In this document: positions 705 to 60,176 of the stretch, piece by piece
How the letters are laid out: each line of letters opens with the position of its first letter
Position numbering within the stretch: position 1 is the stretch's first letter
Source of the DNA: Phapecoctavirus DIJ07P1
DNA: 64,000 bases
Strand: one strand, 5' to 3'
Sequence record: OZ035743.1
Notes under the pieces: model-generated
What the model was told of the DNA's origin: nothing
The model's input: the letters and a program-made list of their open reading frames with translations, nothing else
The model's database searches: none
Program-made: the position numbers and the translations under genes

Positions 705-1080
705 AACTGTATTAGGTTTTGTTTTAATTGTCGTTCTTATTCTTGCTGGAATGTTTGCTTATAACAAGATACATGAGTCTGGCTACAAAGATGGTGTTGC
801 CTATCAAACGCAATTGTATCAAGCAGCCCAAGCAAAAGCAAAACAAGATTTTGATGTTCTTCAAAAAAGAGCAGATGAAGAAAGAGCATTATTAAATACT
901 CAAATAAACAACTTGTCTAAAAACAATGCACAATTAAAAGCAGATTTAGAGAAGAAGAAACAAACGATCAATGAGGATACAACGAATTATGCAAAAACTA
1001 ATTCTGGCAGTATGTCTTGCTTTGCCCCTAATGATGACGGGTTGTTCATCATCAACAAAAGTTTCCCCAGTTCTTATTGA
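688..1080 (+). CDS. i-spanin (Rz-like): N-terminal TM helix plus coiled-coil
   Basis: hydrophobic stretch VLGFVLIVVLILAGMFA then Q/A/K-rich helical region; overlapped by a lipoprotein ORF in another frame. Confidence 0.55.
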   Translation: MNLKTKTVLGFVLIVVLILAGMFAYNKIHESGYKDGVAYQTQLYQAAQAKAKQDFDVLQKRADEERALLNTQINNLSKNNAQLKADLEKKKQTINEDTTNYAKTNSGSMSCFAPNDDGLFIINKSFPSSY

Positions 1081-1315
1081 TGAGTGTAAGGCTGTAGCCA
1101 TAGAAAAGGTTAAAGGTCCAGATTCGGATTTGATGGATAAAGTATCGACACCTGTGCCATACACTAAAAATCAAATTGCAAAAGGGGTTAGTAGATCTGA
1201 AGTTGTTAACAACCAAACTCAAAACAACGCTCTTTGGGAGCAAGATAGACGAAAGGTTTTAGGTTTACAAACATATATTAAAACACTGCAAGAAAAAGGT
1301 ATTATTGCTGAATAA
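971..1315 (+). CDS. o-spanin (Rz1-like outer-membrane lipoprotein)
   Basis: signal peptide with lipobox LMMTGC; starts inside the i-spanin gene in a different frame and extends past it. Confidence 0.55.
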   Translation: MRIQRIMQKLILAVCLALPLMMTGCSSSTKVSPVLIDECKAVAIEKVKGPDSDLMDKVSTPVPYTKNQIAKGVSRSEVVNNQTQNNALWEQDRRKVLGLQTYIKTLQEKGIIAE

Positions 1316-1324
1316 GGAGGGAAT

Positions 1325-3400
1325 GTGGCAAAGAAAAAGGCAGCAGGTAGTTTAGCTGGAGTAGATATTGAAGTAAAGGCTCAACCAGGTAAACAGACTC
1401 TTGCAATGGATTTAATGCCAGAAGTTATGATTTATGGTGGTGCCGCTGGATGTGTTTCTGCTGAAACGGAATATCTTACAAAAGATGGTTGGAAACAGAT
1501 TAGTGAATATTCGGGAGAGGATATTTACCAATACAACCCTAAGAATAAGCGTTTAGAATTGGTAACACCTTACTTTGTAGAATACGATTTAAATGGAGAT
1601 AATCTATACAGAATAACAAATGGTGTAGGATTGTTCCAAGAACTTAGTATGGAACACCGTTTTGTATTCTATAAGAAAAAGAAATCAAAGAAACATTTCG
1701 AGATTCTTGTAGGAGATCTTATTGCATTACAGCAAATAGGAAAACCCCTGCAAGGTTATGTAGAAAATCCATTCGGTAAACGTGTTCCTTTTAACATACC
1801 TGGTAAAAAGAGCACTTACTTAAAAATACACGAGGTTATTTCAACAGATGATAAGAAATATTGTTTTGAGACTCCAAGCAGCTATATTGTCTTTAGACGT
1901 GGCGATCACTGCTTCGTTACTGGGAATAGCGGCAAGTCTCGTCTGCTATTGCTGAAAGCTTTAAAATACGCCTACAAAGACCCTTTGTTTGGTGGAATAC
2001 TTTTCCGTAAGAACACCACTGCTCACCGTAAACCAGGTGGTCTGTTTACAGAAGCAAAACGTTTGTATCTTCCTTTACAACCGCACGTAAAAGAAAGTAC
2101 AATGGATATCATTTTTGAAGCCACTGGTGGTGGAACCCTCAAATTTGACCATTTGGAAAATGATAACGTAACAGCAGAAACAAACCATCAGGGTACACAG
2201 TATTCAATGGTAGGTTTTGATGAGTTAACCCACTTCACGCAATATGAAATGCTCTATCTTCTGGGACGTATGCGTTCAGAATCAGAAACAAGCTTCATGT
2301 TGTGCACATGTAACCCCGATGCAGATAGTTGGGTTTTGAATTGGGTATTACCTTATCTCGATGAGGGCGGTTATCCTAGAGAAGATATGTGTGGTAAACA
2401 AAAATATTTCATCATTGTTAACGATGAACCTGTTTTTGCTGACACACCTGAAGAACTGAAAGAAAAATATCCAGAAAACTGTTTCATGGAAAACCCTAAT
2501 ACAGGGGAGACAGTTGTTATTGAACCACAAACTTTCGTATTTATCGGTGGGACAATATTTGATAACCCAGAATTGATTAGGCTTAACCCTAATTATTTAG
2601 CACAGCTTAAATCACAAACAGCAATCAAAAGAGCACAACTCTTGGACGGCTGTTGGTTTGCACGTATACAGAAAGAGTCTTTCTTCCAACGTGAATGGTT
2701 GCATAAGATATCTTATAAAGATGTTCCTAATAATCTTAAACTAATGCGAGCATGGGATAAAGCTGTTTCAGTTCCTACAGAAACTTATCGTTATCCAGAC
2801 TATACAACATCTGTCAAAATGGGTAAAGACCAAGATGGTAATATCTACATCTTTGGTGACTATGATTATGATGCTGTGGATGAGAAAAGTAAAATTTTCG
2901 GAAGGTTTCGAAGATTACCTGGGGAAAGGGATAACCTGATTCTAAATCAATGTAAGATTGATGGACCAGAAGTTACAGTAGTTCTTCCTAAAGACCCATC
3001 TGGTGCTGGGACAATAGAATATACAGAGTCTGCAAAGAAACTTATTCTAGAGGGTTTTGTTGTTAAACCAGATGCTATGCCAGGCAACAAGAAAAAGCTT
3101 CAGCGTTTTATGCCTTTTAGTAGTGCGTGTCAAAACGGTTTTGTTTATATTGTTGAAGATTCTTTCCCTAATGTGGAAACTTTAACCCACTTTTATAAAG
3201 AATTGGAATCTTTCAATGGTGAAAGATCTACAGCCACTATTAAAGATGACATTCCCGATGCTGCTGCTTCTTGTTTCAATACTCTGTCAAAAGAGAATAC
3301 TTTCAAAGCAGTAGCTATCCCTGCAACAACAAATGCTCCTACAGGATACAGTAGAATGAACAGCGGATTTCACCAACCGTATAGTGTCCGTAAAAGATAA
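1325..3400 (+). CDS. terL: terminase large subunit, intein-containing
   Basis: GTG start after AAGGAGG; split P-loop GGAAG/SGKS, Walker B VGFDELTHF, LCTCNPD motif, C-terminal nuclease-sized region. Confidence 0.85.
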   Translation: MAKKKAAGSLAGVDIEVKAQPGKQTLAMDLMPEVMIYGGAAGCVSAETEYLTKDGWKQISEYSGEDIYQYNPKNKRLELVTPYFVEYDLNGDNLYRITNGVGLFQELSMEHRFVFYKKKKSKKHFEILVGDLIALQQIGKPLQGYVENPFGKRVPFNIPGKKSTYLKIHEVISTDDKKYCFETPSSYIVFRRGDHCFVTGNSGKSRLLLLKALKYAYKDPLFGGILFRKNTTAHRKPGGLFTEAKRLYLPLQPHVKESTMDIIFEATGGGTLKFDHLENDNVTAETNHQGTQYSMVGFDELTHFTQYEMLYLLGRMRSESETSFMLCTCNPDADSWVLNWVLPYLDEGGYPREDMCGKQKYFIIVNDEPVFADTPEELKEKYPENCFMENPNTGETVVIEPQTFVFIGGTIFDNPELIRLNPNYLAQLKSQTAIKRAQLLDGCWFARIQKESFFQREWLHKISYKDVPNNLKLMRAWDKAVSVPTETYRYPDYTTSVKMGKDQDGNIYIFGDYDYDAVDEKSKIFGRFRRLPGERDNLILNQCKIDGPEVTVVLPKDPSGAGTIEYTESAKKLILEGFVVKPDAMPGNKKKLQRFMPFSSACQNGFVYIVEDSFPNVETLTHFYKELESFNGERSTATIKDDIPDAAASCFNTLSKENTFKAVAIPATTNAPTGYSRMNSGFHQPYSVRKR
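1451..1927 (+). other. mini-intein (159 aa) inside the terminase Walker A motif
   Basis: starts Cys43 with block-A-like CVSAETEYLTKDGWKQI, SMEH block-B-like, ends ...FVTGN followed by Ser; excision restores GGAAGSGKS. Confidence 0.7.
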
Positions 3401-7197: not shown

Positions 7198-8199
7198 ATG
7201 CCAGCAGTAATTTTAGATCAGGTTGTAGATTTCAGCCCTATGATCGAACTTCAGGATTCCCCTGATACACTGATTGCCAGCCTGAATCTGTTCAGTGTTG
7301 ACTATCATTCAACTACCGCTATTGAAATCGGTAAAGAAAAAGCTGAAGATGCTCTGATCTCCGCTCGTGAGCGTGGTGGTGAGCGTAACTTCCTGACCAT
7401 GAAAAATCCAGAACTGAAAGCGTTCCGCATTCCGTTCTTCCCTCTGGATAAAAACATCAAAGCTCAAGATATTCAATCTTTCCGTAGCTTTGCAATGGCA
7501 GGAATCAATGACTCTCTGCGCACAGACGCTGAAGTTGTTAACCGTTATATGTCCCAGATTCTGCGTGACGTAGCAAAAACCAAAGAGAAAATCTTTGCAG
7601 AAGCAGTTATGGGTCGTGCCTATAACGGCGTAGGTGGTGCAGCTAACTCTGCATACAACTGGTATACCGAGTGGAATGCTACCCAGAAATCTGTTGCTGT
7701 AGACTTTGCTTCTACCACTGTTTCTCCAGCAGCCACTATCGAACAAGAAGCTCGTGCTTACATCATCGATACTAAACAAGATGGCTCTACCGCTACCCGT
7801 ATCGTAGCTCTGTGTTCTCGTGAATTTTTCGCATCTCTGGTTAACTCTCCATTTGTTCGCCAGGCGTATCAGTATTTCCAGGGAACTCCTAACCTTCTGC
7901 GTGACCGCCTTAGCGGTAACATGGATGTTCAGGTGTTCGAATGGAACGGTGTAACTTACATTGAAGATATCCACGGTAACATCCCTGCTGGTGAAGCATA
8001 TGTTCTGCCTATGGGTATCGAAGGTATGTTCCAGGCGCACTACGCTCCTGCGGATACTCCAGAACTGGCTAACACCCAGGCTCGTGAACTGTATACCTTC
8101 ATGATCAGCCAGCACCGCACTATTCAGCTTCAGTCTGAATTCTCGCTGCTCGCAGTTAACACCCGTCCAGAACTGGTAGTTAAACTGACTACGGCTTAA
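7198..8199 (+). CDS. major capsid protein
   Basis: 333 aa, position after scaffold, strong CTG/CGT/GAA codon bias, terminator immediately downstream. Confidence 0.6.
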   Translation: MPAVILDQVVDFSPMIELQDSPDTLIASLNLFSVDYHSTTAIEIGKEKAEDALISARERGGERNFLTMKNPELKAFRIPFFPLDKNIKAQDIQSFRSFAMAGINDSLRTDAEVVNRYMSQILRDVAKTKEKIFAEAVMGRAYNGVGGAANSAYNWYTEWNATQKSVAVDFASTTVSPAATIEQEARAYIIDTKQDGSTATRIVALCSREFFASLVNSPFVRQAYQYFQGTPNLLRDRLSGNMDVQVFEWNGVTYIEDIHGNIPAGEAYVLPMGIEGMFQAHYAPADTPELANTQARELYTFMISQHRTIQLQSEFSLLAVNTRPELVVKLTTA

Positions 8200-8220
8200 T
8201 AGAACTCTGTTAAGATTAGA

Positions 8221-8253
8221 GGCTCGTCCGTGATGGGCGAGCCTTTTCTGTTT
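8221..8253 (+). terminator. intrinsic terminator after capsid gene
   Basis: GGCTCG...CGAGCC hairpin at 8221-8243 followed by TTTTCTGTTT. Confidence 0.65.
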
Positions 8254-8283
8254 ACAATAAGAGTTTACAACGAGGAGATTGAT

Positions 8284-13515: not shown

Positions 13516-15504
13516 TTGTTAGAAATTAACGCCTCCAAAATTAGTAACGTGGTTACGTTTAAGGTGGACAAGAACAGTCTCAAGGAAGCAAAAGATGCCG
13601 TGTTGAGTGTTCAGAAGTTTGCAAATAAAATGCAACCCACTATGAACATGACCAAGTTTAGACAACAAATGAAAGAGATTGAGCGTGAACTTAAGAAAGC
13701 TCAAACTCAAAGTCAAAAACCTATGCGAGCACCTACTCCCGCTGGAGCGGGTGCTCCTGTAGGCGGATCTGGCAGACCTAGAACTCCTAAAACCCCGCAA
13801 GGAAGAGAAGAAGAAAAAGCTCGTAAAGCTGCTGAACGCGAAGCTAAAGCAGCAGCACGTAGGGAAGACTTAGGTAATCTTCGTTTGCAGAACTTTAACT
13901 ATCGAGCAAGAGCATTTAGTAAAGCCAGTCCTGGCGCTATGCAAGAAGCTAGAGACGTTATGGGTAAAGCTGTAGAGCAATACAAAAAGGGTGAAATAAC
14001 TCTTCAACGTATGAACCAAGCTCTTGCTCACCAGTTGGATGCTTTACGCAGATCTCATCGTGAAAAGAATGCTGAAATAGAAGACGAGGTTCGCGGTCGT
14101 CGCCGTATTCGTAGAGAGTTAGAAGCAGAAGCTAAAATGCGTATACGTATGCGAAATCGTGAACTTAGGGATATAGAACGCAATCGTAAACGTGAATTAG
14201 CTCAACAAAGACGTGACCGTGATCGTCGATATGGACAATTAAAAGAAGGTGCAGCAGGTCTTAATCCACGCATGATTGCATCCTCTTTGATTGGTGCTGG
14301 GCTGTTTGCGGGTGGTTCTGTAGTTGGTAATACGTTGATGAATACTAACGAAAGAATTAAACTTGTAAGCCGTGGTGCTGAAAACGTTCAGACAAACGCC
14401 AACGCTATTTTGGCAATGACAGCTTGGGGTGAACAGAACGGTGTAGACTCTGCAAATATTATTAAGTCAATAGATAATATTAAAGACGTTCGTGAACGTC
14501 TTGGTAATACAGTTTTAGCCTCAAAATGGAATGAGAAAGAAGGGAAGTGGAAAGGCGGCGATAATGGCATAAATGACATTATGAACTTGTTTGGATGGAA
14601 TCCAGAACAGCTTAAACCTTTACAGAACGATCCTTTAGCTTTTATTCAGGCTACTGTTAATGAAGGTGAGCGTCGAGGTATGAACTCTGCTCAAATCGGG
14701 CGACTTCTTGAAAACCTTGGTGATGACCTTATGCACTACCAACGTATGTTTAGTAAAAACGGCGAAGGGTATAATGAAGTATTGAAAATGCTTCAAAGAA
14801 CAGGTGCAACATTAACTCAAGAACAAATAGATGCTTCTAAAGAGTTTACTCGTTTTGCTGCAACAGTTCAGCTTGTAGATCAAGGTATGCAGAACCATTT
14901 CTTAGAGGGTTTTGTGAAAGCCTTACCTAAAGATGATTCTTGGTTGGATAACGTTAAAGTGCTAGATCAGTTTGCCAAAGATTTAGGTGAAGAACTTGGT
15001 AAGACAACAGTGCAATTCGGAGGTTTTGCTAAAGAATTGGGAGATGGTTTCGGATCTTTTACCAATTGGCTTAAAGAAACATTCCCAGATACATTCGGAG
15101 ACAACACAGATCCTAATAAATCTATGGCACAAAAAGCATACGAGGCAACGCAAAGTGGAGACAGCAATCCTGTAGCAGATTGGTTGTACAATTTAACAGG
15201 TATTGATACACAAGATATTGGTCGTATGTGGAGAGGAGAACAAACAAGGACACGTGCTTTTGGATTTGGTAATCCTCTTGAAGATTTACGTGAATCAGCC
15301 TATACACCTAACGTAAGTTTGGCTCGTAATCAACCTGTTGTTGAGAATACGGTAGCAATACCAAGTGATCTTATCAAAGTTACGATCAGCCCTTCTTCAG
15401 AGTTTGGAAATATTCTTGATGCAAGAATTCAAAATAGCGGAAATAGCATTTTCCAACGTTTGTCTCTTTCAACTCTAAGTGGACAATCTAACACTGGTGG
15501 TTAA
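13516..15504 (+). CDS. tail tape measure protein
   Basis: 662 aa, long helical R/E/A-rich region; canonical position after chaperone pair; TTG start after GAGGA. Confidence 0.65.
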   Translation: MLEINASKISNVVTFKVDKNSLKEAKDAVLSVQKFANKMQPTMNMTKFRQQMKEIERELKKAQTQSQKPMRAPTPAGAGAPVGGSGRPRTPKTPQGREEEKARKAAEREAKAAARREDLGNLRLQNFNYRARAFSKASPGAMQEARDVMGKAVEQYKKGEITLQRMNQALAHQLDALRRSHREKNAEIEDEVRGRRRIRRELEAEAKMRIRMRNRELRDIERNRKRELAQQRRDRDRRYGQLKEGAAGLNPRMIASSLIGAGLFAGGSVVGNTLMNTNERIKLVSRGAENVQTNANAILAMTAWGEQNGVDSANIIKSIDNIKDVRERLGNTVLASKWNEKEGKWKGGDNGINDIMNLFGWNPEQLKPLQNDPLAFIQATVNEGERRGMNSAQIGRLLENLGDDLMHYQRMFSKNGEGYNEVLKMLQRTGATLTQEQIDASKEFTRFAATVQLVDQGMQNHFLEGFVKALPKDDSWLDNVKVLDQFAKDLGEELGKTTVQFGGFAKELGDGFGSFTNWLKETFPDTFGDNTDPNKSMAQKAYEATQSGDSNPVADWLYNLTGIDTQDIGRMWRGEQTRTRAFGFGNPLEDLRESAYTPNVSLARNQPVVENTVAIPSDLIKVTISPSSEFGNILDARIQNSGNSIFQRLSLSTLSGQSNTGG

Positions 15505-22487: not shown

Positions 22488-24551
22488 ATGAAACAAGCTA
22501 TATTTACTGTCACGCGAGACAAGAGAGTAAATGCGAGTTCATTTAACTACACGACTGTTGATGGAACAGCAGTCGCTGGTAGAGATTATATTGCAAAATC
22601 GGGAACACTTGTGTTCCCTGATGATGCTGATTCTGCTACCATTGTGGTTGAAGTATTTGAACGACCAAAGAACTCAATAGATCTTAACTTCTCCCTCCAA
22701 GTTTCAGGGATTAGTCAAAATAACATGATGGTTGAAACGACCATCAATTGTATTATAACTACGATCCAAGAAAATACTACTCCAATAACTTGGACTACAA
22801 AAGACGTTAAAATGTTCTCTCCTATGTATTGGACAATAGATTCTCAAGCAACGGAAAGTTGTTCTATTGTATCTCATGGAGACTCTTTTACTGCAAGATT
22901 TGTAAACAGAACAGCAGCAGGTTTGGCAGGGGTTATCTGGAGCACAGTTGACAAATATGACCATAAAGGTGTTGGGTATTTACCCCACACAGATTTAAGT
23001 TCAGAGAAACTTTGGTTTAAAATGGAAATTAGTCAAAACATGCCAGGTTTTAAAGAAGAACCTTTGGTGCCAACTTTGACTGTAACCCTCCTGGATAAAA
23101 GTGTCCACTATGTTAGTTTAGGATTTTATGCTTCAGATATTTCAGAAGATGGTAAAACAGCCACAATCAAATTAGATTTTGGTAATATCTTCTCTGGTCC
23201 TAATAATGATATTCCTTTGGACATGAGTGCTGTAGATAATATTTTCTTCTCTTTGATTACAGCAAGGTATGAAGAAATAGAAGAGATTGTGCCTATTGAT
23301 AGTCAAGAGGCTTGGTTTACTTTCACTCTTCTTGAACCTACTTCTGGTTATAGTACGATGAAAGTCAGTAACCTTGTCCAGCCTGAACATGATATTCGCA
23401 TGTGCACATCTTATGACGATATGTATAACCTGACTCCAGAGAGAGTTATTTATAATACATATGCACTAGGTTATCGTGGAATGATTAACCATTACAATGG
23501 AATGTCTCACTATTATGAGTTCTCATGGAACGGAACATCTTGGGCTTTAAACAGATCTGTCTTCTTGAATCCCGCTACAGAAGCTTGGCTAAATAGTTTC
23601 CATTCTATAGCGAACGAGAAGGGTTACACAATAATGAACTCTTTAAGTTTTGAGTTGATGAGCACAGTTTGTCCTGTAGAATGGGTCCAGCATGATTGGA
23701 ACGATGCTCTTGCAGCAACAGGGTATGAGCCTCCTAGTTACGTATTGTCTCCAACTATTGACGAAGGTATGGAATATTTGCAAAATGTTATTAATAAAAT
23801 AGCATCTATTTCGCAAGCTAATAATATTCCAGTTGTCATTCAAATTGGTGAGCCTTGGTGGTGGTATAATACAGCGAGTAAAATGCCTTGTATATACGAT
23901 TACACTACTAAACTAGCATTCAACACAGAAACAGGTTTATTTGCACAAGATGTAGGAACAATAGATAATTATAAAACAGGAACACCGTTTGACGAATACT
24001 ATGCATTTTTGTCTCGTAAACTAGGATTAAGAGTTACAAAGTTTGCAACAGATACTAGATTAGCCTATCCTGGAGCTAAAGTTACATTATTACCATTTGT
24101 GCCATCCATTTTAGGTAACGGTATGATGGAGTTTGTTAACTTCCCTAAAGATTATTATATCCCAGAAAACTTCGACTTTTATTGTTCAGAATGTTATGAC
24201 TGGTTGTTGGAAGGTAAGATGGAAAAATCTTTTGACGCTATCACAATACCTAATGAACAATTAGGTTTTAGTTATGATAAGATACATTATCTTGCAGGAT
24301 TTGTTCCAGATGCTACTCTTGCACCTTTGTATGGCTTCGATCCTGAATCAAACTACCGAACGTATCTTTGGAAAATGATTATAGGCAATATAGTATTGAA
24401 CACCAACAAGTTTGACGGACTTACACAATATATATGGGCCTATCCTCAAATAATGCACGATTCAATCACGGTAGTTAATTCTCAATCCCAAGTGTTCTAT
24501 ATGGGTAACGTGCCTTTGAACGTTTATTTACAGGATACAGTATATGCCTAA
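22488..24551 (+). CDS. large (687 aa) baseplate-module protein of unknown function
   Basis: ORF track; no motif recognised. Confidence 0.3.
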   Translation: MKQAIFTVTRDKRVNASSFNYTTVDGTAVAGRDYIAKSGTLVFPDDADSATIVVEVFERPKNSIDLNFSLQVSGISQNNMMVETTINCIITTIQENTTPITWTTKDVKMFSPMYWTIDSQATESCSIVSHGDSFTARFVNRTAAGLAGVIWSTVDKYDHKGVGYLPHTDLSSEKLWFKMEISQNMPGFKEEPLVPTLTVTLLDKSVHYVSLGFYASDISEDGKTATIKLDFGNIFSGPNNDIPLDMSAVDNIFFSLITARYEEIEEIVPIDSQEAWFTFTLLEPTSGYSTMKVSNLVQPEHDIRMCTSYDDMYNLTPERVIYNTYALGYRGMINHYNGMSHYYEFSWNGTSWALNRSVFLNPATEAWLNSFHSIANEKGYTIMNSLSFELMSTVCPVEWVQHDWNDALAATGYEPPSYVLSPTIDEGMEYLQNVINKIASISQANNIPVVIQIGEPWWWYNTASKMPCIYDYTTKLAFNTETGLFAQDVGTIDNYKTGTPFDEYYAFLSRKLGLRVTKFATDTRLAYPGAKVTLLPFVPSILGNGMMEFVNFPKDYYIPENFDFYCSECYDWLLEGKMEKSFDAITIPNEQLGFSYDKIHYLAGFVPDATLAPLYGFDPESNYRTYLWKMIIGNIVLNTNKFDGLTQYIWAYPQIMHDSITVVNSQSQVFYMGNVPLNVYLQDTVYA

Positions 24552-24804
24552 AGAAAGTGGTTTTAAAAAGTTTATTCGCGGAATGTTCTGCACTTACCCT
24601 GGTAACGGGGTAAGCTCTACAAAAGTCTGGAACGCTGTAGGCATGTCTGTTATGACAGGCATGTTTATCTTTTTAGGAATAGAAAAAGAAATTCCTGAAT
24701 GGATGGGTTGGGCTTTTGTTTTCATGATAACACCTTCTCGCCTCATGAAAAATCTTATTGATTTACGTTGGGGCAGATCACAATCTACCAAAGAGGACGA
24801 CTAA
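24544..24804 (+). CDS. small two-TM membrane protein with charged C-terminus (holin-like topology)
   Basis: two hydrophobic segments (VWNAVGMSVMTGMFIFLGI, WMGWAFVFMITPS) and KEDD tail. Confidence 0.3.
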   Translation: MPKESGFKKFIRGMFCTYPGNGVSSTKVWNAVGMSVMTGMFIFLGIEKEIPEWMGWAFVFMITPSRLMKNLIDLRWGRSQSTKEDD

Positions 24805-31800: not shown

Positions 31801-31951
31801 AATAGACATTGCAGATCCAATTGTAACGCCTACGAGTGCTGGAGTTAGAATCAAAACCATACCTAACGATTCTAGTAATGTTTCTGTAGGTAATACTGCG
31901 GTTATTCGCCCAACACCAGTGGTAGATGTGCCAACAACCCAATGGAAATAG
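28889..31951 (+). CDS. tailspike with parallel beta-helix (putative polysaccharide depolymerase)
   Basis: 1020 aa; repeated Asn/Gly-rich coil-like motifs (NCTFKNG, ENIYLSNIDG, KNITIRNV, RNISIENIHG). Confidence 0.5.
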   Translation: MATFPTYPATSLEQGVDLVIFSSNQLHDVINGSATESIETESGLIPTLRKALVDNFFFKSPLDWAQGTNETVFNQLRYFQNGVLSGYYYAPNATLVNPIPMQGTPVGDNNWVLWGLKTEQLATEVTPWVYSGATGYETVISPPYIFDSAIVTINGVIQVLGEAFRIEDSKIILSEPLGHDPATGLPNKLFAYIGKIVASADTDPNLENRLVSLETKTEELTESMDKVPLQTIARKYGLLDDEVAYATAGQSLTGIKALYDPVAQSSYTLPPNITGTLTSLSVSGVMTYSGGSVDLSALAVERGQFVHLPTSFGNNVTLTAKNQTIGRGAGRYRWAGSLPKSILASDTLETSGGLGPNAWVLTNTEGLLTPRGGTYNDLFDVVYLSEFANNTTTYTTPEAAFQAALLAAKASKSKILDAYGCDMTFTTSSFDIQGITLRGGVFRGQRDYRVQNATVEGTTFRNSRVMYWGGAVRMFDCLWDGAPRAGQVGSLVFQGNPISGTFEIDNCTFKNGLYGILQQGTGEPVTRGVFRNLTFMDMQGDAIELNVINKHYDDGCVIENIYLSNIDGTNAPIPLSNWGIGIGVAGKGPYGYGIPDDQYCKNITIRNVFAKRCRQIVHVEVGRNISIENIHGDPDQTVSVGTGLATGAVVMYGSKDFTIDGVYGEPKTDGSTLASNIRMIYLEWGTNAVLDEEGNPVVPAQGRPSNPCFNYSVRNIHTKTGRVFAGVSAGPGYENRVSFENIRCAALQLFGVASWLSMSNITCNIFDCVGQPESGPGTFYDGFFRREKSVLEMVNVNCYPDGKTMVTGRPQWSRCRYSDIHRVNCNVEANMYTNIAGGIGAIVGTTGKVYYLEPNPSRNIDGMHFPTGKEFDKGDMIVKADNTFFLVTTSGAYIPDIPAFGIRATQAGDTFLTQNLTPNGTATNASWLYHYPLSAGTRIRIPGAGVGGADLDTVITRAPYQDNDTWTNPVKIDIADPIVTPTSAGVRIKTIPNDSSNVSVGNTAVIRPTPVVDVPTTQWK

Positions 31952-31977
31952 AGAGGGGGAATCCCCCCTCTTCTTCC
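31952..31977 (+). terminator. GC-rich hairpin after tailspike gene
   Basis: AGAGGGGG-AATC-CCCCCTCT; weak T-tract. Confidence 0.35.
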
Positions 31978-32007
31978 AATAGAATGGTCTAATAATAGGA
32001 GAGATAA

Positions 32008-47687: not shown

Positions 47688-47879
47688 TTAACTGTCAGCT
47701 ACAATCCCACGTTTAATCATTTCTTGTTGGATTTGGATGACACGATCTCGTGCTTCCATATATTCTTTAAAAGATTCTTGGAGATGGTCACGAGCTACAT
47801 CCCGTAGTTTAATCAGCTTGTCGTTTGTCACTTCTTGAAGAGAGATCTCGCCAGTTTCATTGGTCCCAAGCGTTTTCAT
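47688..47879 (-). CDS. hypothetical small protein
   Basis: ORF track. Confidence 0.2.
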   Translation of the reverse strand: MKTLGTNETGEISLQEVTNDKLIKLRDVARDHLQESFKEYMEARDRVIQIQQEMIKRGIVADS

Positions 47880-48135
47880 TTACAACCTCCTTAATAGCTA
47901 CTGCACAGTTCTTACAAATACATTGACCTTTGTTCTTAGAAATTTCAATGTAAGGTTCATTTTCGTTTTCTCCGCGTCGTGAATCGTATATTACAGTATT
48001 GAAGCAGACAACGCAAATGTTTTTAATAACGACATATTTTTGCACTTTTTGTTTAGTGCGAAAATTGACTTCAATAACTTCTCCCATCAGTGAATCTCCC
48101 CTAAAATGTTGTTTTGAGACATTACTGCGGAGCAT
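47857..48135 (-). CDS. small Cys-rich (zinc-finger-like) protein
   Basis: CVVCFN...CICKNC. Confidence 0.25.
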   Translation of the reverse strand: MLRSNVSKQHFRGDSLMGEVIEVNFRTKQKVQKYVVIKNICVVCFNTVIYDSRRGENENEPYIEISKNKGQCICKNCAVAIKEVVNENAWDQ

Positions 48136-48371
48136 TCTACAGCATCATGAGTCCTTGCAAAACGCTCCCACAACACAACATCTACTTTAAGAACCATACA
48201 AGGATAAATACTGTCGTTGATCATATCAATACTGTATTTATCTACATCCTTTTCATCTTCCATAAACAAAGTAGCGTATGCTTCCAAATGCTTACGGGTG
48301 TAGTATACGTCCTCTTCGGTAAGACCGACAACCAGGTAACTTGCTACAACAACAGTATTATCTTCTTGCAT
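48087..48371 (-). CDS. hypothetical small protein
   Basis: probable start at internal ATG 48371, 1 nt past the upstream stop. Confidence 0.25.
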   Translation of the reverse strand: MQEDNTVVVASYLVVGLTEEDVYYTRKHLEAYATLFMEDEKDVDKYSIDMINDSIYPCMVLKVDVVLWERFARTHDAVECSAVMSQNNILGEIH

Positions 48372-48372
48372 T

Positions 48373-48894
48373 TTAACTCCCCTTTGGTAGATAGAAACCA
48401 TGCACTTTATCTCGATAAACAAGACGCATATCACGCTCCCAGTGTGTCTTTATATTCCGCTTCTTGAAGTATAGAGCACCTTTAGTAACATCTAAAACAG
48501 ACCGCAATTCAGGAAAATGTTTCTCTAAATAAAGTAAACGCTCCGCTATTGCTTTTGCTTCCTGCCACTTATCTTTCTCTGTTACGTTAAAAGTTTTCGC
48601 ATATGAGAATTGCCCTTTCTGGAACAAGACTCCTCTGACTGTGTTAGGAAAGTAGGCATCATTTCTTCTATTGATTACCACATTCCCAACGGCATTCATT
48701 CCTTTTTTACCCAGACCGCGACCTTCTGCGTAAATTGCACAAGCTAATAGAATTTTATCATTATATTGTTTTGTACATTTGTGAACTACTTTAGCGGTTT
48801 TTACGTTTGCAGCTTCGGCTTTCGCCACAACAGGTGTAAATGTAAAAGCAGTTAAGGATAGTAACGCAACTGTTACAAAGTTTTTTATCAGCAA
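48373..48894 (-). CDS. secreted SleB/CwlJ-like cell wall hydrolase (candidate endolysin)
   Basis: Sec signal peptide ending AKAEA; CAIYAEGRG...GMNAVGNVVINR matches the Hydrolase_2 signature. Confidence 0.55.
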   Translation of the reverse strand: MLIKNFVTVALLSLTAFTFTPVVAKAEAANVKTAKVVHKCTKQYNDKILLACAIYAEGRGLGKKGMNAVGNVVINRRNDAYFPNTVRGVLFQKGQFSYAKTFNVTEKDKWQEAKAIAERLLYLEKHFPELRSVLDVTKGALYFKKRNIKTHWERDMRLVYRDKVHGFYLPKGS

Positions 48895-48926
48895 ATTTTG
48901 CCTCCTTTTTAAGTTAACGAACTTCT

Positions 48927-48955
48927 AGTATAACACGATAGAGGCTTTATTGCAA
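48927..48955 (-). promoter_or_regulatory. sigma70-like promoter TTGCAA-N17-TATACT (minus strand)
   Basis: -35 at 48955-48950, -10 at 48932-48927; RBS AAGGAGG follows. Confidence 0.45.
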
Positions 48956-48993
48956 GAGGGGGATTTCTCCCCCTCAAAATCATTTGTTAATTA

Positions 48994-49596
48994 TTATGGA
49001 CATTCATACCATTCTTTTTTACCACCGAAGGCCATCACCACATCGCAAATATCCAGACCAGCTTTACCTACACCATATGCTTTCAGTTTCCATTCCCCAT
49101 CTTCACGAACCAAGGAAGCCACGTGGCAGATTGTGTTGCCAGCTACTTCAGGAGCCAGGAAGTCAAAATCCAGAATTTCCACATTGCGCTCGGAGTCGAA
49201 GATTTTAAGCATACCTTCAGAAGCATGACCAAAACGTTTCAGACCTGTATCATCATCAATGGTCAGAACAAAGGCAATCTCTTGTGCATCAGGAGAGATT
49301 TTAGCCAGAGTAATATCAATCTGCTCCATGCTGCCAGTTCCATCACGAACATCGTCACCAGCGAAGGTAGAACGTTCAGGATCAAACTTGTTAGCATAGC
49401 AAACCAGATGACGTGCAGACAGCATTTCAGGATTGCCAGCGGCATTGTGACGACAAACCAGTGCACTTACATCCAGATCCAGTTTAGAATCAGATTTCCA
49501 AGAGAATTCCAGGCGCAGTTCTTTCAGAGCCGGAGCAACTTTCTTCAGGGAAATTTTTTCGCTAGAGCCTTTTTTCAGGGAAATTTTATCAGTCAT
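48994..49596 (-). CDS. terD: TerD-family protein
   Basis: aligns by eye along its length to E. coli TerD (ISLKKG..ISLKK, LDLDVSA, GDDVRDGTGSMEQI, EGMLKIFD, DGEWKLKAYGVG). Confidence 0.85.
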   Translation of the reverse strand: MTDKISLKKGSSEKISLKKVAPALKELRLEFSWKSDSKLDLDVSALVCRHNAAGNPEMLSARHLVCYANKFDPERSTFAGDDVRDGTGSMEQIDITLAKISPDAQEIAFVLTIDDDTGLKRFGHASEGMLKIFDSERNVEILDFDFLAPEVAGNTICHVASLVREDGEWKLKAYGVGKAGLDICDVVMAFGGKKEWYECP

Positions 49597-49611
49597 CTTT
49601 TGTCTCCTCTA

Positions 49612-49881
49612 TTATTTAAGTGTAATACCAGTTACAGTCAATTCTACTTCCAAAAGCTTAGATGTGTTTTGGATTGATACTAATTGTGCATGATGGTTTA
49701 GTTCTACAGCAGAATAATCGTTTTCCCCATCATCTACTTTTAAATAAACAATGACTTCACTAAGGTCTAAACCATTTTCGTCAAATGCATTTTCATAGAC
49801 GAAAGTATCTCCTACATCCAAATCCTTAATGGTAAGGCATCGTTTATTTATTTTTTGCTCATCAATTTCGAAGTTTAACAC
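49612..49881 (-). CDS. small protein, paralog of 50903-51247
   Basis: shares F-I-EEK...DLGIG-TF-Y-A-ED-GLD and C-terminal V-L-VT-ITLK with the other copy. Confidence 0.35.
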   Translation of the reverse strand: MLNFEIDEQKINKRCLTIKDLDVGDTFVYENAFDENGLDLSEVIVYLKVDDGENDYSAVELNHHAQLVSIQNTSKLLEVELTVTGITLK

Positions 49882-50110
49882 TTCTTCCTCCTAATGTTAT
49901 CTCCGGTTTGTATATACGAAGAATTATAGCATTTTCATTTTCTTTGTCAACCCATTCTTCATAATCAGGCCATACATGAATCTCTACTCTACTTACAATA
50001 TCTTCCATTCGCACAGTCCCAATGAAATACTCTTTGAGACTGCGCATAATGAAAGCTTCTCTCTCGCGCCAATAATTTTCTATGACTTGAGAGGCAAGCT
50101 CGTCGATCAT
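49862..50110 (-). CDS. hypothetical small protein
   Basis: ORF track. Confidence 0.25.
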   Translation of the reverse strand: MIDELASQVIENYWREREAFIMRSLKEYFIGTVRMEDIVSRVEIHVWPDYEEWVDKENENAIILRIYKPEITLGGRSVKLRN

Positions 50111-50901
50111 TTTTTAGCACCTACTTTAACAACCCACTCTCCGAACTCTTCAGATAAGAGTTTGTCATAAAGCTCTGAATCTGTCAAGTCTAAATCTTTA
50201 ATGCCAATAAAACCAACATTATCATAAGCATTTGCCAGTTCTTTCAGGAAGCCAAACTTCTCATTACCAACGCCAACCATGAACCAATAAATAGGTTTAT
50301 TCTTATTCTCTTCAATAAGACGACGAACAGCACTAGGATCACCATTCTCACCATCCGTCTGGAAGAATACAACACCAGGGGTAACGTCAGCACCTGGTTC
50401 AGACACAGCTACAACCTTTTCACGCTCTACAGATACTGTTTCAGTTTTACCAAGCAGACGATTAAAGAAGCCTTTCTTTGGAGCCTCCTCTTGTACCACT
50501 TGTTTAGTGGTAATATATTTGGTAACAGTGCCAAAATACTCATCGTAGATATCTGCCATTACAGGGGCGTAATTTGTTCCACCTCCGATACGAACATTGC
50601 GCATACATTTACCAACATAGTCATCGTAAACGTCTGCTGTTGCTGGAGTAAGCTCTTGGGAACTCGTATTGAAGGCCCACATATCAATTTGTTGATTATC
50701 GTCGAACAGCATACCAAAAGGAAGCAGTTTACCTACAAAATCACTCACTACCCCACTAGAATATAGACCATGCATACTACCAGAAATATCTAGAGCACAT
50801 GCTACACGAAGAACAATCTTACCTTCATTCAGGTTCTTATTCTTTTTCAGAGAGAAAGCAAGGTTTTCTTGACGTTTTTTCAGGCTGATTTTCTCGGACA
50901 T
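50107..50901 (-). CDS. vWA-domain protein with TerD-like N-terminus (TerY-like)
   Basis: MIDAS motif LDISGSM, later GGGTNYAP and FFQTDGENGD; N-terminus ISLKK...SLKK resembles TerD start. Confidence 0.6.
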   Translation of the reverse strand: MSEKISLKKRQENLAFSLKKNKNLNEGKIVLRVACALDISGSMHGLYSSGVVSDFVGKLLPFGMLFDDNQQIDMWAFNTSSQELTPATADVYDDYVGKCMRNVRIGGGTNYAPVMADIYDEYFGTVTKYITTKQVVQEEAPKKGFFNRLLGKTETVSVEREKVVAVSEPGADVTPGVVFFQTDGENGDPSAVRRLIEENKNKPIYWFMVGVGNEKFGFLKELANAYDNVGFIGIKDLDLTDSELYDKLLSEEFGEWVVKVGAKK

Positions 50902-51247: not shown

Positions 51248-51737
51248 TTATAGGAAGTGTTACAAGAGGATCATCTTCTTCAATTTCCATCTTGTCATCT
51301 TCTGTTTCAATGAGAGTATTATGCACTTTGTGATAAGGGTTGTCAACACGTTTAAACTTATTCTTTTCTGTGCTGAAAAAACAATCTGGATCTTCTTCAC
51401 CATCACCCCAACCTTGGTTAGGATCTCCGTCAGATTGTTCTGTAGGGATTTCACCTGTAAAATACTCTTCCAGCACCATAGCGATACCGTCCCTTGGATT
51501 TGAGGAATGCATCAAATCACAAACCTTACTCCAATCCATAGCCCATTCGAATCGTTCGCGAACACCATTTTCATCCTCCTTTCCAGAGAAAACACAACCA
51601 TAACTATCATAGTTGCCATACATCTCTTCAATAACAACACCGTCCTTCAAAAGAAAGAGGTAGCAAGGTGATCCGTCGAAAGAAGTAGAAAGGGCAGCTT
51701 TGCCCGATTCTTTGCACAAAAAACTAAAACAACCCAT
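51174..51737 (-). CDS. acidic hypothetical protein
   Basis: ORF track. Confidence 0.3.
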   Translation of the reverse strand: MGCFSFLCKESGKAALSTSFDGSPCYLFLLKDGVVIEEMYGNYDSYGCVFSGKEDENGVRERFEWAMDWSKVCDLMHSSNPRDGIAMVLEEYFTGEIPTEQSDGDPNQGWGDGEEDPDCFFSTEKNKFKRVDNPYHKVHNTLIETEDDKMEIEEDDPLVTLPISELQKITKEAYDLGFKIGRGGMRV

Positions 51738-52105: not shown

Positions 52106-52303
52106 TTACTCCTCCTCCTCATTGAAGTCAATATCTGCAAGGAGTTGGAATTTACGGAAGTTACGACAACCTTCATAAATATAACAATCACGACAAACTG
52201 CTAGAACACTTGGGGGATATATGCCTCCCATCGGTGCGAATCGTTTTTCGTCATCATAACGGACACCAATGTCTTCATCAATTATATAGATACGGATTCT
52301 CAT
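52106..52303 (-). CDS. small Cys-containing protein
   Basis: ORF track. Confidence 0.2.
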   Translation of the reverse strand: MRIRIYIIDEDIGVRYDDEKRFAPMGGIYPPSVLAVCRDCYIYEGCRNFRKFQLLADIDFNEEEE

Positions 52304-53412
52304 TTACCAAGCCCTCGTTTCACAGCAGCTACCATCCCGTCTTCCAAAGATTGAACTTCATTAATATAATCAACACGAGCAGCACGGGCTTCCGTATTGA
52401 TGCGGTTAGTTTCTTCCAACATCTTAACCAAGTTTTCCTGATCGTGACGCAGAGTTTCAATATCCAACACTTGACGGTTAGCCAGTGCTGCTGCTTCGAT
52501 CTGATTCTGTGTGGCAAGATCGCTACCCAGTTTAATTGCCAGGTTAAATTCATCAAGAACGTTATTCTGCGTCTCTGCTGCTTTCATTTGACGTAAGCTC
52601 TCGATATACATTGAGAAGTTAGCAGAGTAAGCAGGAATAACATTATTTACTATGTTACGCGCAGATCGCATTAAGCTTGCAGAAACTTTTTGCATACCTT
52701 GTACACGCGGTCCCATTTGGACACACAGTAGGCGCAATGCTTTTAAATCTGCAATACGAATCTCCAGAAGATCCAAAGTATCTCGGATCACTTGTCGCTG
52801 TTCTACTGCATCTTCTGGAAGAGCAGCCAAAGCTTGTTCTTCTTTTTCATAGGTTGCTGTTAGAAGCTGCATATCTCGGTTCAAACTTGCAGCATATTGT
52901 CCAATAGCTTGATGTAGCTTTTCAAGATATACCAAGGAATCTTCTTCTTTGCGAATATCCATTTGAAGGTTTTTTACCAACTCTTCAATACGGTTATTAA
53001 CATTATCAAACTCCCCAAACAGATCTTCTTTCATACCCATAACTTTTTTAATGAGTTTAGTAATACCCTTGCTTTGTTTAATAGAGTTTGGATCAAGTTG
53101 TTTTGCCTGTTTAATCAAAGCTGTGAGTCGTTCACTCATCTGATCGCCTTGATTACTACGTTGATGTTTTAATACCTCGGCATTCAAGGAACGCAAGGTT
53201 GTTCCTGCCTCTGCTCCAATCTCTTCGATCTCCTGTCGGGTCATAGAAGGCAAAACTGGAACTTCTTGCGGTGCCGCTGGTGCATAAACAGGACTGGCAT
53301 CTAACACGCTTGGAGCGAATACAGATTTACTTGCATCTGTTGTTGCAGCAAATACGCTCATTTCAGGTTTCTTCTGACAGCCAGTAGCTGCTTTTAAAAA
53401 TGGACTTGTCAT
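52300..53412 (-). CDS. TelA-like toxic-anion-resistance family protein (tentative)
   Basis: 370 aa, all-helical, size and Ter neighbourhood consistent with TelA/KlaB; no motif check possible. Confidence 0.35.
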   Translation of the reverse strand: MTSPFLKAATGCQKKPEMSVFAATTDASKSVFAPSVLDASPVYAPAAPQEVPVLPSMTRQEIEEIGAEAGTTLRSLNAEVLKHQRSNQGDQMSERLTALIKQAKQLDPNSIKQSKGITKLIKKVMGMKEDLFGEFDNVNNRIEELVKNLQMDIRKEEDSLVYLEKLHQAIGQYAASLNRDMQLLTATYEKEEQALAALPEDAVEQRQVIRDTLDLLEIRIADLKALRLLCVQMGPRVQGMQKVSASLMRSARNIVNNVIPAYSANFSMYIESLRQMKAAETQNNVLDEFNLAIKLGSDLATQNQIEAAALANRQVLDIETLRHDQENLVKMLEETNRINTEARAARVDYINEVQSLEDGMVAAVKRGLGK

Positions 53413-55624: not shown

Positions 55625-56599
55625 TTAAACAGAAGCTTCTTCTTTTTCAGGGAAGATAAAGCTTGCAATAACACCAAGAGATAATGTGCCTAGAACAATC
55701 ATCAGACTTACGTTAGGGGAAATATCATGCGGGAGGAATGACCACTTGGCATGAAGTGTTTCACCGAACGGGTGATACATAAGTTTAGCACCAACAAACA
55801 CCAGAACCACAGCAACAGCTTTCTCTAAGTGAACCAGATATTTCACAGCTACACTTAACACAAAGAAAAGTGCACGTAAACCAAGAACAGCCATCAGCAT
55901 TGCAGAATAAACTAGCAGAGGTTCTTGTGTCACACCGATCACAGCCGGAACTGAATCAAAAGAGAAGACAATATCTGTAAGCTCAATAACAAACACACAA
56001 AGAAGAGCAGGAGTTGCATATTTAATACCATTCTTAATGGTGATGAACTTTTCACCATCCAGTGCATTGTGCACAGGCAGAACTTTACCTACTAAACGAA
56101 CAGCCCAATGTTTAGAGTAATCAATATCCTCTTCTTCGTCACCACCTTTGATGATAGCCACGGCAGACCAAGCTACAATCAAACCGAACAACACTTGGAC
56201 CGACCAATGAAGGTTAAACAAAGCGGTCCCTGCTGCAACAAAAATACCTCGGAAGACAATGGCTCCTGCAATCCCCCAAAGTAGAATCTTATGTTGGAGA
56301 TGTGTGCTCTTAATTCCAAAGCTTGCAAAAATTGCCATGAACACCATTAGGTTATCTACAGAAAGACTCTTTTCCAACACATAGCCACTTAGGAAAAGCG
56401 CGGCAAACTCTTTACCATGTTCTACCCAAATGAATGCGTAATACCCTAAAGCTAAAGCAATCCAAAAAACAGACCAAAGCAAAGCAGATTTAATTCCAAT
56501 TTCTTTATTCTCTTTATGACCAAAGAAATCGATACCAATAGACAATGCCAAAATACCAACTAAAACAACTACATCAATAATTGGGAAACCGAGTTGCAT
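55625..56599 (-). CDS. terC: TerC-family integral membrane protein
   Basis: multi-pass membrane protein with LSGYVLEKSLSVDNLMVF family signature. Confidence 0.8.
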   Translation of the reverse strand: MQLGFPIIDVVVLVGILALSIGIDFFGHKENKEIGIKSALLWSVFWIALALGYYAFIWVEHGKEFAALFLSGYVLEKSLSVDNLMVFMAIFASFGIKSTHLQHKILLWGIAGAIVFRGIFVAAGTALFNLHWSVQVLFGLIVAWSAVAIIKGGDEEEDIDYSKHWAVRLVGKVLPVHNALDGEKFITIKNGIKYATPALLCVFVIELTDIVFSFDSVPAVIGVTQEPLLVYSAMLMAVLGLRALFFVLSVAVKYLVHLEKAVAVVLVFVGAKLMYHPFGETLHAKWSFLPHDISPNVSLMIVLGTLSLGVIASFIFPEKEEASV

Positions 56600-59725: not shown

Positions 59726-60176
59726 TTGCCGTTTTGGTCCATAATCTTTGATTATCTGACCCTCTGAAAGGTTTTGTAGTTGGATTGTTTATTTCGTACT
59801 TTCCGTCTACAATAATGTCAATAAGATTTTTAATATACAAAGGCACTTCCTCAAAAGTATATCCTGTATACACCATTATATCTTTGCTTGACCCATAAAC
59901 GTCTCTAACCTTTTCTATAAGGCTTTTAACATTGTGAATATTCTGCGGATCTAATGGTTCTCCTCCTAAAATTGTTAAACCTTTTACAAATGGTCTTGAC
60001 AAATCTTTTAAAACTTGCTCTACATTTTCGTCAGTAAACGGTTTCCCATAAGAATAAGACCAGGCTTTTTGGTTAAAACAGCCACGACAACCGTGGCTAC
60101 AACCACTAACCCAGAGGGAGCACCTAACTCCCTCACCATTAATAAGATCTACAGGTTCATATCCTGCAAAATTCAA
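59706..60176 (-). CDS. nrdG: anaerobic ribonucleotide reductase activating protein
   Basis: radical-SAM cluster motif CSHGCRGC near N-terminus; 156 aa; downstream of nrdD. Confidence 0.8.
   Translation of the reverse strand: MNFAGYEPVDLINGEGVRCSLWVSGCSHGCRGCFNQKAWSYSYGKPFTDENVEQVLKDLSRPFVKGLTILGGEPLDPQNIHNVKSLIEKVRDVYGSSKDIMVYTGYTFEEVPLYIKNLIDIIVDGKYEINNPTTKPFRGSDNQRLWTKTASGWQSD

Follow-up and report, generated by a model that had tools for sequence, protein, structure and literature searches.

A SleB-like cell wall hydrolase with a predicted Sec leader, a candidate accessory muralytic enzyme of a phAPEC8-like coliphage

Bona fide SleB requires the muramic-delta-lactam of the spore cortex, which is absent from the wall of E. 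coli. SleB and CwlJ from Bacillus (PDB 4F55, 4FET) are spore cortex-lytic enzymes, and SleB contains an N-terminal peptidoglycan-binding domain that is missing from the phage hydrolase described here, which resembles CwlJ in being likewise a bare catalytic domain. The phage protein differs from the Bacillus enzymes in that it belongs to a Gram-negative host without muramic-delta-lactam and in its predicted Sec leader, which is of the Gram-negative type.

Lys44 (from the Oenococcus phage fOg44) and the SAR endolysins (such as P1 Lyz and R of phage 21) reach the wall via the host Sec system and not through holin holes, and leader-bearing phage lysins have reportedly been described in several studies. 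Lys44 and the SAR endolysins are sole endolysins, encoded in lysis cassettes together with a holin or pinholin, and have another catalytic fold, whereas the hydrolase has no adjacent holin and coexists with a separate, cytoplasmic T4-type lysozyme. With regard to expression, T4 lysozyme (the product of gene e) is said to be under translational control, and PeSL elements, in which a stem-loop is followed by an early promoter, reportedly occur in T4-type phages. The locus described here shares with T4 gene e and the PeSL cassettes a GC stem-loop followed by a sigma-70-type promoter and, possibly, a sequestration of the Shine-Dalgarno (SD) sequence that would affect read-through transcripts only. 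It differs from them in that the cassette has no further copies in the window (the whole 64,000-nucleotide stretch of Phapecoctavirus DIJ07P1 that was analysed, from record OZ035743.1), the anti-SD pairing is supported in some orthologues only and there is apparently no late promoter.

Homologues with about 35% identity are present in Vequintavirinae (gp83 of Pectobacterium phage CB7, gp087 of Cronobacter phage CR3 and AFU63728 of Salmonella phage SSE121). They share with the hydrolase the leader, an HxC...LAC..E motif and the TTG start codon, and SSE121 also has a terminator hairpin upstream, although in SSE121 and in the locus L013, unlike in the window, the hairpin lies too close to the ribosome-binding site for a promoter to fit in between. 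The genomes of these Vequintavirinae phages carry another endolysin too, and this partner differs, being a modular lysozyme or an M15-type peptidase (PMC7344957, PMC12210895). The Pectobacterium phage homologue, CB7_83, is reported to carry a signal peptide and to be toxic when expressed in E. coli (PMC7344957).

The window is part of the genome of a phAPEC8-like E. coli myovirus (Phapecoctavirus, Stephanstirmvirinae), and the hydrolase gene is the same as the phAPEC8/Phapecoctavirus gene annotated as 'putative cell wall hydrolase SleB' (AFU62770.1; ESCO13 gp226; nieznany gp193). The phAPEC8-type loci share its synteny, with a TerD-like gene upstream and small ORFs followed by glycosyltransferases downstream; nothing substantive separates them from the present locus, and those records contain annotation only. 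The coding sequence (173 aa) occupies positions 48373-48894 of the minus strand, from a TTG start codon to a TAA stop codon at 48375-48373, and this TTG (48894-48892) is the earliest possible start downstream of the in-frame stop that precedes the ORF. The 1.9 kb that surround the gene (window positions 47800-49700) are 99.6% identical to phage KKP 3954 and at least 95% identical to 64 records, and 131 phage records match them in all. The identical 173-aa sequence is already present in NCBI, ENA and Logan, and the public names for this exact protein are 'cell wall hydrolase SleB' or 'endolysin', the latter being its existing label in RefSeq and PHROGs. Its 90%-identity protein cluster includes members from phAPEC8, ESCO13 and ZCKP1, under names such as 'endolysin [phAPEC8]', 'putative cell wall hydrolase' and 'Spore cortex-lytic enzyme'. 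In the literature that was searched, neither transcriptomes nor functional studies were found for this gene family in Gram-negative phages. Databases and the literature already cover the gene, its family and its leader, and the only new element at the locus is the frozen, antisense-structured 5' region of the gene.

Catalytic domain and predicted signal peptide

That the gene codes for a SleB-like cell wall hydrolase, as proposed by a previous reading of the letters and translations of this DNA (hereafter, the sequence-only reading), is borne out by profile searches. Pfam Hydrolase_2 (PF07486) covers residues 62-168 with 64.6 bits, against a gathering cut-off of 27, and is present in all the homologues found; a search of the PDB with a profile made of 36 homologues has SleB catalytic domains as its sole matches (E~1e-23), placing the protein in the SleB catalytic-domain fold. 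The catalytic domain comprises residues 37-170 (positions 48385-48786, minus strand). In the alignment of these 36 sequences, residues E57, N75, R76, F96 and H165 are invariant, and two cysteines (Cys40 and Cys52) are invariant across the close family. Glu57, the catalytic residue (codon GAA, 48726-48724), is aligned with the glutamate of the SleB motif 'ESRGE', which is essential for lytic transglycosylase activity (PMC12331253). The AF2 model has a mean pLDDT of 84 and is confident for residues 31-173, while residues 1-30 are disordered (pLDDT <50).

The hydrolase is a single-domain enzyme of the SleB/CwlJ fold and most likely a lytic transglycosylase that would work on the glycan strands of peptidoglycan. 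E. coli murein would be its substrate, although the dependence of bona fide SleB on muramic-delta-lactam speaks against this. The possibility of a bona fide SleB was considered and rejected: the protein contains no peptidoglycan-binding domain, it comes from a phage of a non-sporulating host, and its score with the SleB equivalog model TIGR02869 is 52.5 bits (residues 37-117 on model positions 79-159), far under the cut-off of 236.5. After the predicted cleavage of its leader, the mature hydrolase would be a basic protein of about 17 kDa (pI ~9.9).

The predicted Sec (SPase I) signal peptide comprises codons 1-26 (positions 48817-48894, minus strand), with n/h/c architecture, a proline at -6 and AXA motifs, and would be cut between MLIKNFVTVALLSLTAFTFTPVVAKA and EA. 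Its positively charged n region reads MLIK, its h region FVTVALLSLTAFTFTPVVA and its c region KA, followed by EA after the cleavage point. The h-region (F6-A24) has 19 residues, eight of which are Thr, Ser or Ala, with a mean Kyte-Doolittle hydrophobicity of 1.94, and Pro21 is the residue at position -6. Small-x-small sites are found at VVA24, AKA26 and AEA28, and cleavage is alternatively predicted after A24 or A28. The leader contains neither a lipobox nor a twin-arginine motif, and there is no cysteine before residue 40. A leader of this class is not peculiar to the phage under study, since an N-terminal hydrophobic segment was found in 121 of 150 family representatives (followed by a small-x-small motif in 112 of the 121), and the homologues of T5-like phages and Seunavirus bear one as well. 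A cysteine lies within the hydrophobic segment in 41 of the 121 leader-bearing relatives, and the N-terminal segment of the present hydrolase has none. The Sec-type leader anticipated by the sequence-only reading is in this way upheld by heuristic analysis, which combined sequence features (n, h and c regions, no lipobox or twin arginine) with the pLDDT below 50 of residues 1-30. On these grounds the hydrolase would be exported and its leader cleaved, and export without a holin, as that reading had suggested, is plausible.

The leader also bears on a different role, that of a virion-associated lysin piercing the wall at DNA injection. Hydrolase_2 domains do occur in some virion or tail proteins of at least 1000 aa (BFVD matches ranked 21, 31, 35 and 40), but a cleavable Sec leader would take the protein away from the cytoplasm, where virions assemble, and the gene is located outside the structural module, which occupies the plus strand from 1 to 35.8 kb. 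In addition, the CB7 study gave the role of virion lysin to a gp25-like protein and not to the SleB homologue (PMC7344957). A virion lysin is accordingly very improbable, and this reading was rejected on leader and gene position.

Gene neighbourhood and the endolysin question

The neighbours of the hydrolase gene, all of them on the minus strand and non-structural, include TerD and vWA-TerF-like genes, small ORFs of unknown function (94 and 92 aa), glycosyltransferases, primase and polymerase, in agreement with the minus-strand accessory module in which the gene had been placed. Downstream, a 94-aa ORF (48087-48371, minus strand) belongs to PHROG 16257, a family of unknown function (E=1.7e-57), has no Pfam or NCBIfam match and, on inspection by eye, lacks a long hydrophobic segment. 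Its ATG lies 1 nt past the hydrolase stop codon, so that co-transcription and translational coupling with the hydrolase gene are probable, and the same arrangement is found in ESCO13 and nieznany. Upstream lies a gene with a TerD domain (48994-49596, minus strand; Pfam TerD, E=3.2e-28), itself preceded by a perfect TTGACA-16-TATAAT site at 49950-49923; transcription from it would stop at the GC hairpin described in the next section or continue past it.

This environment could be that of a periplasmic enzyme that remodels peptidoglycan as part of the early or middle programme and has no part in lysis. Secretion systems and flagella have specialised lytic transglycosylases that work like this, and the hydrolase might in a similar way open the sacculus for a phage envelope complex (made of Ter-like proteins, the TerC membrane protein and vWA), or else act on cell size and shape or on muropeptide turnover. 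Such a function is consistent with a gene that sits between TerD, vWA-TerF-like, TerC-like and glycosyltransferase genes and replication genes, with its host-type promoter, and with the occurrence of leader-bearing homologues in non-lysis, replication-type neighbourhoods in a T5-like phage that has its own lysis genes (one of these homologues adjoins a recombination exonuclease gene). However, the Ter-like synteny is not universal, as the orthologous loci L007-L009 have another gene upstream of the hydrolase, and the toxicity of the CB7 homologue (PMC7344957) fits a lytic role equally well, so that a purely remodelling enzyme is regarded as unlikely.

No membrane protein, holin or small transmembrane protein adjoins the hydrolase gene. 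The spanin pair of the phage is located 47 kb away, next to the terminase, at 688-1315 of the plus strand (i-spanin at 688-1080 and an Rz-like/o-spanin ORF at 971-1315); it was recognised by PHROG 4297, PHROG 1267 ('Rz-like spanin') and an N-terminal transmembrane domain in the translation, and it is annotated in nieznany. The hydrolase gene is therefore not linked to a lysis cassette, which argues weakly against an endolysin role, given that large virulent phages often have their lysis genes scattered. Its placement, together with a host-type promoter, does not suggest late expression.

The relatives of this phage encode a second enzyme, a full-length, leaderless GH24 lysozyme of the T4 e type (166 aa), whose residues 7-165 are aligned to residues 3-161 of T4L (E~1e-48), with the catalytic E/D/T motif kept and without a hydrophobic N-terminus. 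It is at least 99% identical in 58 Phapecoctavirus genomes, KKP 3954 among them, and across the subfamily the lysozyme was found in about 132 genomes and the SleB-like gene in about 131. The lysozyme gene lies outside the window, which by synteny corresponds approximately to positions 72-136 kb of the nieznany genome. 'Two lytic proteins' have been stated for Phapecoctavirus (PMC10793346), and a published genome note mentions 'two endolysins' (PMC12210895). Because both are core genes, the SleB-like gene and the GH24 lysozyme gene are presumably both useful and not simply redundant.

The endolysin candidacy that the sequence-only reading had attributed to the hydrolase is maintained only in part. 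The protein has a phage-encoded, muralytic-type catalytic domain and carries 'endolysin' annotations; on the other side, the leaderless GH24 lysozyme co-occurs in every close relative and the hydrolase gene has neither holin nor spanin linkage, the spanins (688-1315) being beside the terminase. The hydrolase is neither the sole candidate lysin nor the most canonical one, and it is probably not the main endolysin of the phage.

It could nevertheless be argued that the hydrolase is the principal endolysin, exported early by Sec, held harmless in the envelope and activated when a holin or pinholin depolarises the membrane, the GH24 lysozyme being redundant or otherwise employed. Restraint would come from an uncleaved, SAR-like N-terminal helix that tethers the enzyme, or from its inactivity while the membrane is energised. 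Leader-bearing lysins of such logic are said to exist, the database label is 'endolysin', and the Thr/Ser/Ala content of the h-region (8/19), which is more conserved than the enzyme domain, would be in line with this role. So would the invariant C40 and C52 beside the catalytic E57 and the cysteine in the segment of 41 of the 121 relatives; these residues recall the disulfide caging of P1 Lyz. The toxicity of the homologue in E. coli (PMC7344957) points in the same direction. However, the good SPase I sites (VVA, AKA, AEA) and the proline at -6 favour cleavage over a SAR anchor, and the N-terminal segment of this hydrolase is devoid of cysteine. Moreover, a complete T4 e-type lysozyme is kept in all the relatives, no holin or pinholin lies beside the hydrolase gene, and its surroundings are of early or middle type with a host-type promoter. 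A principal endolysin is, on this evidence, improbable.

The reading that we favour, and hold to be moderately probable, is that of an accessory muralytic enzyme of the periplasm, exported by Sec and kept at low dose. The hydrolase would be synthesised with a Sec signal peptide that is cleaved off, and would enter the periplasm of the infected E. coli as a second, accessory muralytic enzyme. The role of canonical endolysin would fall to the leaderless lysozyme of the T4 e type, working together with a holin and the spanins. In this division of labour, which we infer, the periplasmic hydrolase would introduce nicks into the sacculus, or remodel it, while infection proceeds, and so prime or back up the final lysis.

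Promoter, hairpin and translation start

A candidate promoter of the sigma-70 type is found at 48927-48955 of the minus strand, with TTGCAA at 48955-48950, a 17-nt spacer and TATACT at 48932-48927, and a TG at 48935-48934 gives it an extended -10; it matches 9 of the 12 consensus positions and lies within a 99-nt gap, among the few real intergenic gaps. Taken alone, a single site like this is not beyond chance, as a 6-kb scan gave 28 such sites against 16.5+/-4.4 expected, and the exact pattern has two matches in the window against 1.0 expected. Nevertheless, TTGCAA, the 17-nt spacing and TGnTAnAnT are kept, despite differing flanks, in four distinct orthologous upstream sequences (L004/L006, L007/L008, L009 and L012), which are all those read with TTGCAA. 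L010, from a lineage with 53% identity, has a weaker -35 (TTGTTT) and a TGn extended -10. The order of GC hairpin, TTGCAA, 17 nt, TGnTAnAnT, conserved 5' UTR, AGGAGGC and TTG is maintained across orthologues and persists where the flanking DNA, and even the upstream gene, differs. The promoter of its own (TTGCAA-N17-TATACT) that had been assigned to the gene was therefore correctly located and, being conserved among orthologues, stands as a sigma-70-like candidate.

The GC hairpin (GAGGGGG-AGAAAT-CCCCCTC, 48956-48975, minus strand), identified by sequence and folding, lies 3' of the TerD-like gene. It had been described as overlapping the -35 region, but it stops one base short of it and abuts the -35. 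A strict terminator scan did not call this hairpin because its U-tract is poor. In the orthologues a GC hairpin is present at the same place in every lineage, with other stem and loop sequences, and the U-tract is better in L007, L010, L013 and L086, so it is likely that the element works as a leaky intrinsic terminator of the TerD-like gene or as a stabiliser of its 3' end. A family of repeated, PeSL-like cassettes was also considered and rejected, since a search of the window for repeats of the hairpin-promoter cassette (TTGCAA-N14-TGNTANANT) returned this site and one match with one mismatch, which is the chance level. The T4-type late promoter motif TATAAATA is not enriched (six found, 4.75 expected), with none near the hydrolase gene, and an Rfam scan of positions 48200-49200 at E<=1 gave no match.

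Translation would start from a TTG preceded, 6 nt before, by a Shine-Dalgarno sequence (AGGAGG, 48901-48906, minus strand), and AGGAGGC followed by a TTG start is present in all the orthologous loci read. TTG is used by 7/7 Stephanstirmvirinae-type loci and also by SSE121 and L013 (35-36% aa identity), although these are related sequences and not independent counts; in the genome of a relative, TTG accounts for 8 of 134 annotated starts (~6%). A GCCTCT within the promoter spacer (48940-48945, minus strand) is complementary to the Shine-Dalgarno sequence and pairs with GGAGGC in the MFE structure, as a possible anti-SD. The probability that the SD is paired is 0.99 in a read-through RNA and 0.66 in an RNA initiated at the promoter, and this pairing was reached by 2 of 100 spacer shuffles both in the window and in L004. 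Support for the pairing is found in the window and in L004, is weak in L007 and L009, and is absent from L012 and L010. GCCTCT could possibly block the translation of read-through transcripts only, which is a lead and not a finding.

For the accessory enzyme favoured here, the dose would be limited in three ways: the hairpin, as a leaky terminator, would insulate the gene from the upstream Ter-like operon, the gene would depend on its own moderate sigma-70-type promoter with extended -10, and the conserved TTG would be a weak start codon. A low dose would be needed because an exported enzyme that cuts the wall is dangerous. This low dosage, like the timing and the physiological role of the hydrolase, is our inference. 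An apparently deliberate low expression (from the TTG start and the upstream hairpin) would suit the remodelling enzyme discussed above as well.

The 5' codons and the antisense strand

The codons of the signal peptide and the first codons of the mature protein contain a long, imperfect inverted repeat (48779-48869) that forms a strong hairpin on the antisense, plus strand only. The MFE of the plus-strand hairpin is -36.5 kcal/mol (z=-6.08), with 0 of 200 shuffles as stable, which places it within about the top ten 96-nt folds of the window by stability, while the sense strand of the same stretch reaches -15.7 kcal/mol (z=+0.25). Sense-strand mRNA structure across the 5' region is not above shuffles in stability (z=+0.14, +0.25), and RNAalifold applied to this region found no compensatory changes. 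The arms of the repeat are the codons T15-T20 and A29-V37, and the variable cleavage region forms the loop; the mismatched positions read as G-U on one strand and as A-C on the other, which is why the hairpin is strong on the plus strand only. The same strand-biased fold is present in L004, L006, L007, L008, L009 and L012, and SSE121, whose DNA cannot be aligned with that of the window, shows an antisense bias too in the hairpin that covers its leader codons (z=-3.4 to -3.7). Among 21 loci, z is below -2 in the leader region of seven and in a control region of one, and four of these seven loci belong to close relatives. In L010 the strand bias of the leader-region fold is the opposite. Given these counts (7/21 loci, with L010 reversed), a family-wide antisense hairpin was rejected, and the trait is regarded as lineage-specific.

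Pairwise identity among the orthologues is 0.86 in the h-region, 0.69 in the catalytic domain and lowest (0.57) in the cleavage region, and the identity of synonymous codons is 0.94 in the h-region and 0.88 in the c-region versus 0.54 in the catalytic domain; the inverted-repeat stretch is the peak of DNA identity at the locus (0.93-0.98). The conservation of the h-region appears to have its cause at the DNA or RNA level, because synonymous sites are frozen too. This also detracts from the principal-endolysin argument, in which the conserved h-region was counted in favour, as a conservation that reaches synonymous sites does not require a function of the peptide. Alternatively, the conserved h-region could be more than a disposable leader, for example a membrane tether.

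It has been considered that the first ~110 nt of the gene may be constrained at the nucleotide level by an RNA element, in which a cis-antisense RNA or another strand-specific structure would gate the translation or the timing of the toxic, Sec-exported hydrolase, together with the anti-SD and the TTG start. The logic would be that of type I toxin-antitoxin control, transferred to a virulent phage and one of its lysis-related genes. A search for antisense promoters found only weak TTGCAC-N18-TAnTAT-like matches (7-8/12), in which the invariant LACA codons account for the -35. The antisense hairpin is likewise a lead and not a finding, and gating of this kind is judged quite doubtful.

As an annotation, the hydrolase adds little. 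The large virulent coliphages used in therapy (phAPEC8-like, rV5-like and T5-like) all keep a leader-bearing SleB-type hydrolase together with a conventional endolysin, and the role of a second hydrolase beside a T4-type lysozyme is a modest question in the biology of phage lysis. The conserved throttling features of this gene (the TTG start, the hairpin with its promoter, and the frozen 5' codons with their antisense-biased hairpin) suggest in what way an exported enzyme that cuts the wall could be carried safely by a phage. Should the RNA element prove real, it would represent a new kind of control for a phage muralytic gene.

Conservation and folding of the signal-peptide codons

DNA identity between the hydrolase locus of the window and its orthologous loci peaks at the signal-peptide codons (48779-48894), and synonymous sites across them are frozen in the window and in the orthologous loci L004, L006-L009 and L012. 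The same codons give rise to a long hairpin whose stability is confined to the antisense (plus) strand (z=-6.1), the sense strand giving z=+0.25. The SSE121 orthologue (L086:2486-2615), whose DNA is unalignable with that of the window, has a comparable hairpin with the same antisense bias; this feature over the leader codons is not present in all lineages compared. The window also contains other exceptionally stable 96-nt RNA folds (MFE of -35 to -44 kcal/mol), several of which lie within coding regions and favour one strand. They are on the plus strand at 8149-8268, 22549-22644 and 24577-24684, on the minus strand at 50005-50100 and 60037-60168, and, with no strand given, at 13669-13812 and 31885-32004.

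Translation start and cysteines of the hydrolase

The hydrolase gene starts with a TTG codon (48892-48894) that is kept from Stephanstirmvirinae to Seunavirus-type orthologues (35% amino acid identity), as read in the window and in L004, L006-L009, L012, L013 and L086; in phage nieznany, TTG accounts for about 6% of annotated starts. The promoter spacer contains a GCCTCT motif (48940-48945) complementary to the Shine-Dalgarno sequence (48901-48906); support for their pairing comes from the window and L004 and is weak or absent in other orthologues. This pairing would be limited to read-through transcripts from the TerD-like gene and, if GCCTCT masks the Shine-Dalgarno sequence in such RNA, translational control could be similar to that of T4 gene e.

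A cysteine lies within the N-terminal hydrophobic segment in 41 of the 121 leader-bearing hydrolase homologues, and those named for their cysteine pattern are the family representatives P0018-P0022, P0042, P0044-P0046, P0051, P0054, P0056 and P0060, together with L086 and L013. The window hydrolase has no N-terminal cysteine. In its close family, C40 and C52 are invariant and adjoin the catalytic Glu; these residues and the leader cysteines of the homologues recall, by analogy, the way in which the SAR endolysin P1 Lyz is caged by a disulfide.

Ter-like neighbourhood and promoters

The hydrolase gene is surrounded by a phage-borne Ter-like gene set on the minus strand, which codes for a TerD-domain protein (48994-49596), a vWA-TerF-like protein (50107-50901), a 370-aa "tellurite resistance" protein (~52300-53412) and a TerC-like membrane protein (~55625-56599), as well as for a phosphatase and a hydrolase. 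The "tellurite resistance" and TerC-like proteins are assigned from gene order shared with ESCO13 and nieznany. Small genes on the minus strand are preceded by a perfect TTGACA-16-TATAAT site with TG (12/12; 49923-49950) and an 11/12 sigma-70 site (51318-51346), both on the minus strand and consistent with transcription of this module by the host RNA polymerase.

Database records and the other lysis genes

A search with the 1.9-kb region around the hydrolase gene of this E. coli phage genus also matches several GenBank records whose labels name Campylobacter, Acinetobacter or Klebsiella as the host. Identity over the full 1.9 kb is 98.6-98.7% for ABPW7 (labelled Acinetobacter) and ZCKP1 (labelled Klebsiella), and one Campylobacter-labelled record, B15, also encodes an identical GH24 lysozyme. 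These records may carry wrong host labels or come from mixed samples.

The T4 e-type lysozyme of these phages (gp046 in phage nieznany, L002:23212-23712) is encoded outside the window, and its top PDB sequence match is 7RGR, "Artificial protein L056", whose first ~70 residues are identical to this phage enzyme. The spanin pair (688-1315, plus strand), an i-spanin with an N-terminal TMD followed by an overlapping Rz-like/o-spanin ORF, directly precedes the large terminase gene (1325-3400). The spanins are thus remote from both muralytic genes, so that this phage has its lysis genes scattered.
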